NCBI RefSeq assembly: GCF_024502345.1
Contig: NZ_JALDNN010000001.1
Length of the DNA: 64,000 bases
Reading direction: 5' to 3' (one strand)
Origin: Escherichia coli
GTDB lineage: Bacteria; Pseudomonadota; Gammaproteobacteria; Enterobacterales; Enterobacteriaceae
Shown: positions 22,437 to 26,717 of the stretch, in pieces
Position numbering within the stretch: the stretch's first letter is position 1
Layout: every line of letters begins with the position of its first letter
Notes under the pieces: generated by a model
What the model saw: only the letters and a program-made list of their open reading frames with translations
Told to the model about the DNA's origin: nothing
Databases searched by the model: none
Translations under genes and position numbers: made by a program

Positions 22437-22857
22437 GCTTCGCCCGGCCACGCAGTACGACACCGACGCGGTTTACGCGCTGATTTGCGAGCTAAAACAG
22501 GCGGAGTTTGACCACCACGCGTTTCGCGTGGGCTTTAACGCCAACCTGCGCGACCCGAACATGCGCTACCATCTGGCGCTGCTGGATGGCGAAGTTGTCG
22601 GCATGATCGGCCTGCATTTGCAGTTTCATCTGCATCATGTCAACTGGATCGGCGAAATTCAGGAGCTGGTGGTGATGCCGCAGGCGCGCGGCCTGAACGT
22701 CGGCAGTAAATTGCTGGCGTGGGCAGAAGAAGAAGCCCGCCAGGCCGGGGCCGAAATGACCGAACTTTCCACCAACGTGAAGCGCCACGACGCACACCGT
22801 TTCTATCTGCGCGAAGGCTACGAGCAGAGCCACTTCCGCTTCACGAAGGCGCTGTAA
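22423..22857 (+). CDS. phnO: Aminoalkylphosphonate N-acetyltransferase (GNAT)
   Basis: 144-aa GNAT-like ORF. Confidence 0.9.
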
Positions 22858-22858
22858 C

Positions 22859-23617
22859 ATGAGCCTGACCCTCACGCTCACCGGCACCGGCGGCGCACAG
22901 GGCGTTCCGGCATGGGGCTGCGAGTGTGCGGCCTGCGCCAGAGCGCGGCGCTCGCCGCAGTATCGCCGCCAGCCGTGCAGCGGCGTAGTAAAGTTTAACG
23001 ACGCAATCACCCTGATCGACGCCGGGCTGCACGATCTCGCCGATCGCTGGTCGCCCGGTTCGTTCCAGCAGTTTTTGCTGACGCACTACCATATGGATCA
23101 CGTGCAGGGGCTATTCCCGCTGCGCTGGGGCGTGGGCGATCCGATCCCGGTTTACGGCCCACCGGATGAACAGGGCTGCGACGATCTGTTTAAACATCCG
23201 GGCCTGCTTGATTTTAGCCACACGGTGGAACCGTTTGTAGTGTTTGATTTGCAGGGATTGCAGGTCACGCCGCTGCCGCTCAACCACTCAAAACTGACCT
23301 TCGGTTATCTGCTGGAAACGGCACACAGCCGGGTGGCGTGGCTGTCTGACACCGCTGGCTTGCCGGAAAAAACGCTGAAATTTTTACGCAATAATCAGCC
23401 GCAGGTAATGGTGATTGATTGCAGCCACCCGCCGCGCGAGGATGCGCCACGTAATCACTGTGATTTAAACACCGTGCTTGCGCTGAATCAGGTTATCCGC
23501 TCGCCGCGCGTGGTTCTGACCCATATCAGCCACCAGTTTGATGCGTGGCTGATGGAAAACGCACTGCCGTCGGGGTTTGAGGCGGGGTTTGATGGGATGG
23601 AGATTGGGGTGGCGTGA
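22859..23617 (+). CDS. phnP: Metallo-beta-lactamase-fold phosphodiesterase
   Basis: HxHxDH motif ([10 protein letters not shown]); 252 aa. Confidence 0.92.
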
Positions 23618-23640
23618 TGAGAGGGAATGTGCGCGCTGGC

Positions 23641-23740
23641 CCCCTCACCCTAACCCTCTCCCCAGAGGGGCGAGGGGACCGATTGTGCTCGATATTGAAT
23701 ATTACGCTGGTTTTCTCCCTCTCCCCATTGGGGTGAGGGG
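23641..23740. repeat. Pair of GC-rich imperfect palindromes downstream of phnP
   Basis: ccctctcccc-aga-ggggcgagggg and ccctctcccc-att-ggggtgagggg, flanked by cccctcaccc / gggtgagggg. Confidence 0.5.
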
Positions 23741-23763
23741 CGATGCCTGCTCCATACCCAACC

Positions 23764-24093
23764 TCATCGCCCATACTCATCTTCCATTCTCCGCTCTTCA
23801 TCTTCTAGCTGCCGACGCTCCTGATCAAGCTGGCGCTGGCGATCGTCCAGCTGCCTGCGGCGATCTTCAAACTGGCGGCGGCGGTCGTCATATTGTCTGC
23901 GCCGATCGTCGCTCACTTCACGCTGCCAGCCGTCGTCGCGCGAATCTTCATAGTCTCGCCCACGGTCAGGGTTATAAGCGTCGTTAATCGCCTGCTGAAT
24001 ATTGCCAATGGTGTCGTCGATAATATCGGCCTGGGCCGGTACGGTGGTCAGCGTGAGCAGGGTGAATAAAAGAAATAGCGGAAAGCGTTTCAT
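23764..24093 (-). CDS. yjdP: Secreted low-complexity Asp/Arg-rich protein
   Basis: 109-aa ORF with signal peptide then DDRRRQ-type charged repeats. Confidence 0.8.
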   Translation of the reverse strand: MKRFPLFLLFTLLTLTTVPAQADIIDDTIGNIQQAINDAYNPDRGRDYEDSRDDGWQREVSDDRRRQYDDRRRQFEDRRRQLDDRQRQLDQERRQLEDEERRMEDEYGR

Positions 24094-24161
24094 TAGCCAA
24101 CCTCAAAAAGAAACTCTATCCACATTAGTCATTACTCATCCATGCAAGTAGTGGATGAATC

Positions 24162-24479
24162 TCAATTTCTCCGCTGCTCTATTGCCGTAATCGCTTCCAC
24201 GCTTTGTTGATGACGACCGCCTTCGTACTGTGCGCCCAGCCACGCATCCACAATCATTTTTGCCAGTTCGAGGCCAACCACTCGTGAACCAAAAGCCAGT
24301 GCAACTTCACTGGCGTAATGCGGATAATCAGTGCGCTCTGACGACCTGGTTTCTTTATCAATCCCCTCACTCATTGACCATGAATAAAAGGCTGGCACAG
24401 CAACACAGAATCCTGCGGTGCCAGCGACATGACCGCCCATTGCTCCGGTACGTTTTTTAATAAAAAACACCGGTTGCAT
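24162..24479 (-). pseudogene. rpiB: Decayed remnant of ribose-5-phosphate isomerase B
   Basis: 105-codon ORF whose C-terminus (FGSRVVGLELAKMIVDAWLGAQYEGGRHQQ.VEAITAIEQRRN) and SSERTDYPHYAS segment match RpiB as I recall it (about 149 aa), with about 44 codons missing internally and a diverged N-terminus. Confidence 0.5.
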
Positions 24480-24731
24480 TGATTAATTGTGCTCAGTATT
24501 TGCCGAAGTACAATATATATAATAAATATATAAAACACCTCATATTATTTACAGAGATAATAAATTCGCGTACTTTTCCCTCTTCAGCACAAATGCCTAA
24601 TAAAATGGATCGTTCCGCTCACACTTCCACTTATTAAAGTCGCAATTTCCCAATTATGATAACGCCAGCTTTAAATGACGTATTTTGCATGGATTACATA
24701 TTTACGACATAAATGATAAATGGAGATTTAT

Positions 24732-26717
24732 ATGAATAACTCTCGGTTATTCCGTTTGAGCAGGATTGTTATTGCGTTAACTGCCGCCAGCGGCATGATG
24801 GTAAATACCGCTTACGCGAAAGAGGAAGCGAAAACCGCCACTCAATATACCCAACAGGTTAATCAGAATTACGCCAAATCATTACCGTTTAGCGATCGTC
24901 AGGATTTTGACGATGCCCAGCGTGGATTTATCGCCCCGCTGCTGGATGAAGGTATTCTGCGTGATGCGAACGGTAAAGTTTACTACCGCGCAGACGATTA
25001 CAAATTTGATATTAATGCCGCTGCGCCGGAAACCGTAAACCCCAGCCTGTGGCGTCAGTCGCAGATCAACGGCATTTCTGGCCTGTTCAAAGTCACCGAT
25101 AAAATGTATCAGGTGCGCGGCCAGGATATCTCTAACATTACGTTCGTTGAGGGGGAGAAAGGCATTATTGTCATCGACCCGCTGGTGACGCCGCCTGCCG
25201 CAAAAGCCGCACTTGACCTTTACTTCCAGCATCGTCCGCAAAAACCGATTGTTGCCGTTATCTACACTCACAGCCACACCGACCACTATGGTGGCGTGAA
25301 AGGCATTATCTCTGAAGCCGATGTTAAATCCGGCAAAGTACAGGTGATTGCCCCTGCTGGCTTTATGGACGAAGCCATCAGCGAAAACGTGCTGGCGGGT
25401 AACATCATGAGCCGCCGTGCGCTCTACTCTTACGGTCTGTTACTGCCACACAACGCGCAAGGCAACGTGGGTAATGGCCTTGGCGTGACGCTGGCAACGG
25501 GCGACCCGAGCATTATTGCACCGACTAAAACTATCGTCAGAACTGGCGAGAAGATGATTATCGACGGCCTGGAGTTTGACTTCCTGATGACCCCAGGTAG
25601 CGAAGCACCAGCCGAAATGCACTTCTATATTCCGGCCCTGAAAGCCCTGTGTACCGCCGAAAACGCCACGCATACCCTGCACAACTTCTACACTCTGCGC
25701 GGCGCGAAAACCCGCGATACCAGCAAGTGGACCGAGTACCTGAACGAAACGCTGGATATGTGGGGTAACGACGCGGAAGTGCTGTTTATGCCGCACACCT
25801 GGCCGGTCTGGGGCAATAAGCATATCAATGATTATATTGGTAAATATCGCGATACCATCAAGTATATTCACGATCAAACCCTGCATCTGGCGAACCAGGG
25901 CTACACCATGAATGAAATCGGCGACATGATTAAGCTGCCGCCTGCACTTGCCAATAACTGGGCCAGCCGTGGCTATTACGGTTCTGTCAGCCACAACGCC
26001 CGCGCGGTGTATAACTTCTATCTTGGCTATTACGACGGTAACCCGGCTAACCTGCATCCGTATGGTCAGGTAGAGATGGGCAAACGTTACGTGAAAGCGC
26101 TGGGCGGTTCTGCCCGTGTCATCAACCTGGCGCAAGAAGCGAACAAGCAAGGTGATTACCGCTGGTCGGCAGAACTGCTGAAACAGGTGATTGCCGCCAA
26201 CCCGGGTGACCAGGTCGCGAAGAATCTGCAAGCGAATAACTTTGAACAGCTGGGCTATCAGGCCGAGTCCGCCACATGGCGCGGTTTCTACCTGACCGGC
26301 GCGAAAGAGCTGCGCGAAGGGGTGCATAAGTTCAGCCACGGCACCACCGGTTCCCCGGACACCATTCGCGGAATGTCGGTCGAAATGCTGTTCGACTTTA
26401 TGTCCGTTCGCCTCGATAGCGAAAAAGCCGCGGGTAAAAATATCAGCCTGAACTTCAATATGAGCAACGGCGATAACCTCAACCTGACGCTGAACGATAG
26501 CGTGCTTAACTACCGTAAAACGCTGCAATCCCAAGCTGACGCCTCTTTCTACATCAGTCGTGAAGATCTGCACGCCGTGCTGACCGGACAAGCCAAAATG
26601 GCAGATCTGGTAAAAGCGAAGAAAGCCAAAATTATTGGCAATGGCGCGAAACTGGAAGAAATTATCGCCTGTCTGGATAATTTCGATTTGTGGGTGAATA
26701 TCGTAACCCCAAATTAA
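24732..26717 (+). CDS. yjcS: Secreted metallo-beta-lactamase-fold alkyl sulfatase-like protein
   Basis: 661-aa product with signal peptide and HxHxDH motif (HSHTDHYGG). Confidence 0.9.

Follow-up and report, generated by a model that had tools for sequence, protein, structure and literature searches.

We found that yjdP, a minus-strand gene at positions 23764..24093 of the window (the whole stretch of 64,000 nucleotides of Escherichia coli DNA that was analysed), encodes a protein whose Asp/Arg-rich heptad repeat is precisely conserved, and that a candidate RcsB box, itself conserved across loci, lies upstream of the gene. Both are modest additions, since the gene and its repeat were already catalogued. 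Taking the evidence as a whole, we lean slightly towards an explanation in which yjdP specifies an autonomous exported rod made mainly under Rcs envelope stress. The gene would be an autonomous, Enterobacteriaceae-restricted unit with its own activator-dependent promoter carrying an RcsB-type box at about -49 to -36, and its small, Sec-exported periplasmic product would be made mainly when the Rcs phosphorelay is on, for instance in response to lipoprotein mis-sorting or to outer-membrane or peptidoglycan damage. Read-through from rpiB would supply additional yjdP transcript in K-12. The mature protein would consist of three parts, namely an acidic amphipathic helix, a floppy acidic linker and a helix of ~55 residues built from L-D-D-R-R-R-Q heptads. 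Nearly every charged side chain of this long helix could pair with one of opposite charge one turn away, and these salt bridges would stiffen the helix into a rod with one narrow, sticky seam. The Leu/Tyr/Phe seam and the N-terminal helix may mediate self-association or docking to a partner, and the protein may contribute to envelope protection.

The open reading frame (ATG start, 109 aa plus stop) belongs to the YjdP family as already named. A profile search against NCBIfam gave 148.1 bits for NF041443, 'DDRRRQL repeat protein YjdP', an equivalog model with a curated cutoff of 90, and residues 1-103 were aligned on profile positions 1-101 of 101. This score, together with 108/109 identical residues (99%) in the YjdP of a K-12 BW25113 derivative, bears out the gene name proposed in the earlier note. 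RefSeq gives the same ORF the same product name in E. coli complete genomes, and a match to Pfam PF28054 is precomputed on every YjdP homologue. The local Pfam copy did not include the PF28054 model, and the local scan returned only sub-threshold coiled-coil-bias matches (DUF7900, RNase_Y_N and similar). Weak NCBIfam matches to FlbB, HlyD and RNase Y were dismissed as coiled-coil composition bias. Comparison of the window protein with the family revealed no difference: the match is full-length, the signal peptide and DDRRRQL-type heptads are present and the gene is adjacent to phnP. The window copy is therefore ordinary for E. coli, and the repeat had been noticed earlier by database curators. 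The protein had also been described as having no assigned function, and this agrees with what we found: the family is named without a function, and our literature search recovered mentions of yjdP, none of them functional, and no paper describing the family.

Residues 1-22 (24028..24093, minus strand) read as a Sec-type signal peptide, in keeping with the earlier proposal. The N-terminus, read by rule, consists of MKR, a 15-residue hydrophobic core and P-A-Q-A, with predicted cleavage between AQA and the following D. An AxA site followed by D or N is present in 72/74 family sequences. Direct reading of the signal region revealed no Cys (no lipobox) and no twin-Arg, and by rule YjdP would be a signal-peptidase-I substrate whose export is predicted. 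The 87 residues of the mature protein include 20 Arg, 0 Lys, 19 Asp, 9 Glu and 10 Gln; 55% are charged, and with 28 Asp/Glu the net charge is -8. Family medians are D 21, E 7 and K 0. Along the chain the charge is blocked, at -4 for the N-terminal helix, -3 for the linker, +3 for heptads 1-3 and -4 for the tail.

The first 39 mature residues are non-repeat. They comprise the conserved acidic amphipathic N-terminal helix DIIDDTIGNIQQAINDAY (residues 23-40; 23974..24027, minus strand), in which Ile/Ala/Tyr are spaced 3-4-3-4 along the sequence, and a variable acidic/Arg linker (residues 41-53; 23935..23973, minus strand) that is predicted to be non-helical. Heptads begin at residue 62. Six of them, of the form (D/E)(D/Q)(R/E)(R/Q)R(Q/R)(Y/F/L/M), occupy residues 62-103 (23785..23910, minus strand) and read DDRRRQY, DDRRRQF, EDRRRQL, DDRQRQL, DQERRQL and EDEERRM, followed by EDEYGR, so that the heptad count is six to seven. 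The periodicity is far beyond composition: we counted 27 lag-7 identities versus 7.8 +/- 2.4 in composition-preserving shuffles, and 0/20,000 shuffles reached 27. An Asp/Arg-rich repeat architecture had been proposed for the protein and is confirmed by these results. The accompanying statement that the protein is almost entirely repeats holds only in part: the repeats are real, but they cover ~48/87 mature residues (~55%). Underneath the heptads lies a 21-nt tandem DNA repeat (23825..23890; period 21, 3.2 copies, 76% matches by TRF), which is the substrate of repeat-number polymorphism. Escherichia forms of 95, 102, 109 and 123 aa differ from one another in whole heptads, each a 21-nt slippage unit.

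We used AlphaFold2 to model the monomer from a 14-sequence alignment. Residues 54-108 (23770..23934, minus strand) were predicted as one uninterrupted 55-residue charged alpha-helix with a pLDDT of 85-96, which would be about 8 nm long if straight. The pTM of the model was 0.34, and hence no tertiary packing is predicted. The linker (41-53) was left without secondary structure, with a pLDDT near 50 that fell to <50 at 44-47, and residues 23-40 were assigned as helix by DSSP with a pLDDT of only about 31-64 across two models. Within the long helix, the i/i+3 and i/i+4 pairs are overwhelmingly of opposite charge (36 opposite-charge and 4 like-charge). The resulting net pairing of 32 compares with 0.9 +/- 6.2 in shuffles, and 0/5000 shuffles matched it. 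A single Leu/aromatic stripe, one residue per heptad, runs along the predicted helix. We also modelled a tandem dimer (mature-(GGGGS)6-mature; 26-sequence alignment). The pTM was 0.44 and the long helices were retained at pLDDT 77-89, with the N-terminal helices at <40 and no confident interface. A Foldseek search of the PDB with the tandem-dimer model gave zero matches, and no PDB chain matched by sequence at E = 1. It is conceivable that the acidic N-terminal helix pairs with the basic early heptads, either within one molecule or between molecules, because charge is blocked along the chain and the N-terminal Ile/Ala/Tyr follow a 3-4-3-4 spacing.

The predicted rod resembles two known classes and is a clean member of neither, one defining feature failing in each case. 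With the charged single alpha-helices (SAH, ER/K) of eukaryotic myosins and caldesmon, YjdP shares a long predicted helix without tertiary contacts and dense opposite-charge pairs at i/i+3 and i/i+4, the latter at a level that none of the 5000 shuffles equalled. It differs in that Asp greatly exceeds Glu, Arg is the sole basic residue and Lys is absent. It also keeps a strict Leu/aromatic residue at every seventh position and a conserved Gln, so that the sequence is not the Glu/Lys/Arg-rich helix without a hydrophobic seam by which SAHs are defined. In addition, YjdP is bacterial and predicted to be periplasmic. With leucine zippers it shares a strict heptad with Leu at every seventh residue, and if this Leu is placed at d, positions e and g are oppositely charged (D/E and R). 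At its second core position YjdP has Arg or Gln, where a zipper has a hydrophobic residue, and the YjdP repeats do not have hydrophobic residues at both a and d. Because each heptad offers just one hydrophobic position, this sequence need not form a classical coiled coil.

We next consider how widely the protein occurs. When 1.84 billion representative proteins were searched exhaustively with HMMER, no more than 53 clusters, often fragments, passed E <= 1e-3. We also scanned one genome per GTDB species with a single peptide pattern, which returned 76 loci; 75 were from Enterobacteriaceae (about 20 genera), and 73 of these 75 gave a usable full-length ORF. The 76th locus (Clostridium, L075) was rejected as a false positive, an unrelated Lys/Glu coiled coil. 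Carriers include Escherichia, Citrobacter, Raoultella, Kosakonia, Kluyvera, Buttiauxella, Atlantibacter and Yokenella, as well as Klebsiella oxytoca, Pluralibacter, Phytobacter, Pseudocitrobacter, Trabulsiella, Leclercia and Dryocola. Salmonella was represented neither among the 76 loci nor among the best 120 matches, a result of a single peptide pattern that does not establish absence from that genus. In these scans YjdP was found only in Enterobacteriaceae.

All 73 loci follow a common plan of signal peptide, ADIIDDAIGNIQQAINDAY-type helix, variable acidic/Arg linker and five to seven heptads. The N-terminal helix is nearly invariant across genera and the linker varies in length. With the hydrophobic residue set as a, the heptad profile of the 73 orthologues reads L/Y/F/M at a, D/E at b, D/E/Q at c, R at d and R/Q at e, with R at position f in 91% and Q at position g in 79%. 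Several heptad columns are identical in 72-73/73 orthologues, and the same is true of Leu at a in the core heptads. When the window sequence was compared with equal-length orthologues of Citrobacter and Trabulsiella, dN/dS was 0.05-0.11, with synonymous sites near saturation (pS 0.60-0.87). The repeat segment is the most constrained part of the protein (pN 0.03-0.06, with pS 0.64-0.88), followed by the N-terminal helix and then by the linker and signal peptide; within the mature protein, the linker has the highest pN. The gene is genuine and under selection. The region had been called low-complexity; its repeats form a precisely conserved heptad under strong purifying selection and are not drifting.

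Directly upstream of yjdP lies a remnant of rpiB (24162..24479, minus strand; 105 aa) that matches only positions 102-138 of 138 of the Pfam LacAB_rpiB profile. Homology to K-12 rpiB resumes at about 24302. The remnant abuts yjcS, the alkyl sulfatase gene (24720-26717) that is the neighbour beyond it, and the als operon is missing, as expected from the earlier description of yjdP as sitting beside a deletion scar. The same junction is present in 1568/5426 complete E. coli genomes. We treat the rpiB remnant as context and not as part of YjdP function. On the other side, phnMNOP lie on the plus strand, and phnP, which ends at 23617, converges with yjdP (end 23764); this layout is the same in K-12 and in 44 loci from other genera. 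The upstream gene differs from locus to locus: among ~74 loci it was a hybrid histidine kinase in 26, rpiB in 10, an fdhF-like fragment in 6, yjcS in 5 and other genes in the rest. Functional linkage by gene neighbourhood was rejected, as the upstream gene varies and the downstream phnP is convergent. A long ORF is also present on the opposite strand at 23577-23987.

The interval between phnP and yjdP (23619..23760) is filled with G+C-rich palindromic extragenic repeats, inverted repeats I1 and I3. The RNA fold of this interval is -74.2 kcal/mol (z = -2.1), and several copies occur per genome. The interval has been listed as a hairpin/G-quadruplex element between yjdP and phnP (PMC5100583). 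The palindromic repeats probably serve as the 3' end or as a stabiliser of the phnP and yjdP transcripts. A search of Rfam gave nothing at E = 1 on either strand of 22800-24900, and 'terminators' called inside the yjdP ORF were discarded as repeat artefacts.

To the 5' side of the gene, the 170 nt preceding the start codon were aligned for the window together with the 73 loci. A pseudo-palindrome resembling an RcsB box, TGAGATTCATCCAC, was found at 24151..24164 (minus strand) within an extended conserved element (24148-24165); in the window its start coincides with the rpiB remnant's stop codon. Its consensus, TTGAGATTCCTCCGCTAC, is present in 73/73 usable loci and in the window, 70-75 nt before the ATG (mode 72). 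The box columns carry about 1.8-2 bits, and the 25 nt further upstream about 0 bits. Since different genera have different upstream neighbours, the box travels with yjdP. The consensus derived from structure for the RcsB homodimer box is TN(G/A)GAN4TC(T/C)NA (PMC7913699). The window box agrees with this published consensus at 7/8 specified positions, the final A being C, and shares 11/14 positions with the osmC box of S. Typhimurium, TGAGATTTATCCTA. A loose RcsB pattern was found 6 times in the window, where 8 occurrences are expected by chance. As the pattern is not enriched, the evidence for the box is its conservation and position and not the match itself.

A second conserved block, TTGAnTAACGT, follows at fixed spacing. 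Its E. coli form, TAATGT (24122..24127, minus strand), 23 nt after the box, is a putative -10 hexamer; other genera have TAACGT or TACCGT, and the invariant T, A and final T fit the hexamer. On this reading of the alignment, transcription would start near 24115, the box would lie at about -49 to -36 and the -35 would be poor. A strict sigma-70 scan detected no promoter near yjdP, which is unsurprising if the promoter depends on an activator and has a poor -35. The Shine-Dalgarno sequence GAGG is located at 24101..24104 (minus strand), 7 nt before the ATG, and most loci keep GAGG or GAGA there. The proposed arrangement resembles that of the RcsB-activated genes osmC, osmB, ytfK, ivy and bdm, with which yjdP would share a GA-N4-TC box just upstream of the -35 region; yjdP differs from them in that its box ends in C instead of the consensus A. 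The ytfK box is at -50 to -36, the same position as that deduced for yjdP. Our literature search did not find yjdP as a listed member of the Rcs regulon. We consider RcsB control of yjdP to be probable. In K-12, rpiB is located 68 nt upstream of yjdP on the same strand with no convincing terminator between them, whereas in the window only the proximal promoter can serve yjdP, because the window has lost most of rpiB, and the 5' end of the gene with it.

Published expression data are in line with stress induction. The earlier note had named a failure to detect expression as a refutation of its reading, and at the RNA level this refutation already fails: published RNA-seq detects a stress-inducible yjdP mRNA. 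When E. coli was treated with LolCDE inhibitor, yjdP rose from 10.6 to 100.6 and 112.3 expression units, that is, 9.5- and 10.6-fold (PMC5105897). Genes induced together with it include osmB, bdm, wca/wza, ivy, mliC, yjbEFGH, rcsA, spy and cpxP, and the same list also holds osmY, osmC, otsAB and other osmotic or sigma-S genes (PMC5105897). The authors of that study traced the response jointly to Rcs, Cpx and sigma-S; they did not ascribe it to sigma-E or sigma-H (PMC5105897). As Cpx and sigma-S were also activated, this induction alone is not Rcs-specific. In an imipenem dataset, yjdP was up only 1.4-fold, and its reads were 5-fold above those of rpiB with the opposite direction of change. This excess over rpiB and the opposite change support a promoter of its own for yjdP. 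In the PRECISE compendium, yjdP is grouped with rpiB in the Crp-2 iModulon and not in an Rcs module, which suggests read-through from rpiB in K-12. A GadEWX ChIP study listed yjdP among repressed genes with a genic peak.

At the protein level, the searched portion of a large proteome supplement did not contain YjdP, and no yjdP entry was found in the supplements of PMC8822343, PMC13098195 and Mori 2021. Shotgun proteomics may miss the protein because trypsin shreds its Arg-rich repeats. The peptide DIIDDTIGNIQQAINDAYNPDR would be a suitable YjdP target for mass spectrometry.

We weighed several other explanations against the autonomous, Rcs-induced rod. The 21-nt repeat is G+C-rich and visible in the DNA, and a long ORF runs on the opposite strand (23577-23987), so that yjdP could be thought a spurious ORF arising from that DNA repeat, with no functional protein. 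Selection and conservation exclude this reading, and its probability is close to nil: dN/dS lies at about 0.05-0.11 and synonymous sites are saturated; about 20 genera conserve the signal peptide, the start codon, the Shine-Dalgarno sequence and the promoter elements; the YjdP family has curated HMMs; and yjdP mRNA is detected. An accessory role for YjdP in rpiB, allose or ribose-5-phosphate metabolism, with transcription only as the tail of the rpiB transcript and a box that is unrelated, would account for the K-12 arrangement (rpiB 68 nt upstream on the same strand, no good terminator between) and for the Crp-2 grouping. We judge it very improbable, as rpiB is the upstream gene in only 10/~74 loci, and the window and 1568 genomes have lost the als operon and most of rpiB but keep an intact yjdP under purifying selection. 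Moreover, yjdP reads exceed those of rpiB and change in the opposite direction, and an exported charged rod has no obvious tie to a cytoplasmic isomerase.

Two further alternatives accept an exported, stress-induced protein and differ in what it does. Induction together with spy and cpxP suggests a stress-induced, ATP-independent periplasmic chaperone or signalling adaptor of the Spy/CpxP/ZraP (LTXXQ) type, and YjdP is likewise small, helical, charged and predicted to be periplasmic. No sequence or profile similarity connects it to these proteins, however: searches for an LTXXQ/CpxP-family profile gave no Pfam or NCBIfam match at E up to 10, and the PDB gave no sequence match at E = 1. The YjdP model is a single rod, not a helical-hairpin cradle with a hydrophobic concave face. 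The consensus of CpxR-type repeats is GTAAA-N5-GTAAA, and no such repeat is visible upstream of yjdP. We therefore regard a chaperone of this type as improbable. A composition-driven polyampholyte, acting as a hydrophilin/LEA-like protectant or as an ion or osmotic buffer in which bulk charge is what matters, is compatible with the 55% of charged residues, the net charge of -8, the co-induction with osmB, osmY, osmC, otsAB and other osmotic/sigma-S genes and the lack of a predicted globular fold. Against it stands a position-specific conservation that is tighter than composition needs (R at f in 91%, Q at g in 79%, Leu at a in 72-73/73); the repeats are also the most constrained part of the protein and are gained or lost only as whole heptads. 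We consider it distinctly unlikely, although not to the degree of the chaperone.

The autonomous exported rod made mainly under Rcs envelope stress is the explanation that we retain, with different confidence in its parts. That the rod self-associates or docks by way of its seam and N-terminal helix, rather than being a purely monomeric SAH or acting by composition only, is a tentative element and on balance doubtful. A bolder version, which we think unlikely, would make YjdP an unrecognised direct RcsB target and a periplasmic counterpart of the SAHs: a rod of ~8 nm that assembles with itself or docks via its Leu stripe and acidic N-terminal helix, and that, when the outer membrane or lipoproteins are under stress, protects or spaces the envelope or binds a cationic host or antimicrobial factor.

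The heptad analysis shows that what had passed for a low-complexity region is a precisely conserved structural element. The conserved RcsB-type box and the published stress induction place YjdP, as a hypothesis for this E. coli y-gene, in the envelope-stress response. If this is true, YjdP would be a new member of the Rcs regulon and an unusual Asp/Arg-only charged-helix model protein in the periplasm.

A deletion scar beside yjdP had been proposed in the earlier note, and we found it borne out: the als operon is absent, and an rpiB remnant of 105 aa directly adjoins yjcS. The region spans window positions 24162-24720, with the junction itself near 24289-24305, and all that is kept of the isomerase domain is the last 37 profile positions. 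Because 1568 of 5426 complete E. coli genomes carry the identical junction, in the gene order yjcS / rpiB' / yjdP / phnP, the loss of als beside yjdP is a common lineage polymorphism and not a private scar. In EHEC the yjcS-yjdP site is taken up by the OI-167 island, with lmvK/lmvR (PMC10128022).

YjdP itself varies in heptad number across Escherichia: versions with lengths of 95, 102, 109 and 123 aa were detected, differing by whole units of 7 aa (21 nt), and both the 102-aa and the 109-aa proteins were very common in E. coli. The variable heptad repeat maps to 23825-23890 (proteins P0040, P0117 and P0030). The whole gap that separates phnP from the convergently oriented yjdP (23619-23760) is filled by palindromic extragenic repeats with two G+C-rich units, of the GGGGAGAGGG / CCCTCACCC type. 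Strong folding was calculated for this region (-74 kcal/mol, z = -2.1), several copies of the repeats were found per genome, and they are catalogued as a hairpin/G-quadruplex element in a published survey.

Upstream of yjdP, a perfect 7-bp inverted repeat, TCATCCA-N9-TGGATGA (24136-24158), overlaps the 3' half of the RcsB-like yjdP box. When yjdP upstream regions were compared, the window shared it with K-12 and E. whittamii, and it was not seen in other genera. It could form a weak hairpin at the 3' end of rpiB or else serve as a lineage-specific operator. A hybrid sensor histidine kinase gene with HAMP-HisKA-HATPase-REC domains ends about 70 nt before the conserved yjdP box in many genomes of Citrobacter, Pluralibacter and their relatives (26 orthologous loci, including L003, L006 and L010-L015). 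Elsewhere in the window, the near-palindromic site TTAGATAAATCTTA / TAAGATTTATCTAA (56364-56377) fits the strict RcsB consensus whichever strand is read. An ORF for a pdeC (yjcC)-like CSS-domain protein starts 58 nt downstream of it, and the site falls within the gap on the yjcB side of that ORF. Since about 8 chance matches to the loose RcsB pattern are expected per window, this match may be without meaning.

Finally, we considered expression compendia for the rpiB-yjdP region of K-12 (locus L077, 2765-3612). These assign yjdP and rpiB to one module, 'Crp-2', and this shared membership implies transcriptional read-through from rpiB into yjdP in K-12; in the window's strain, such read-through is impossible.
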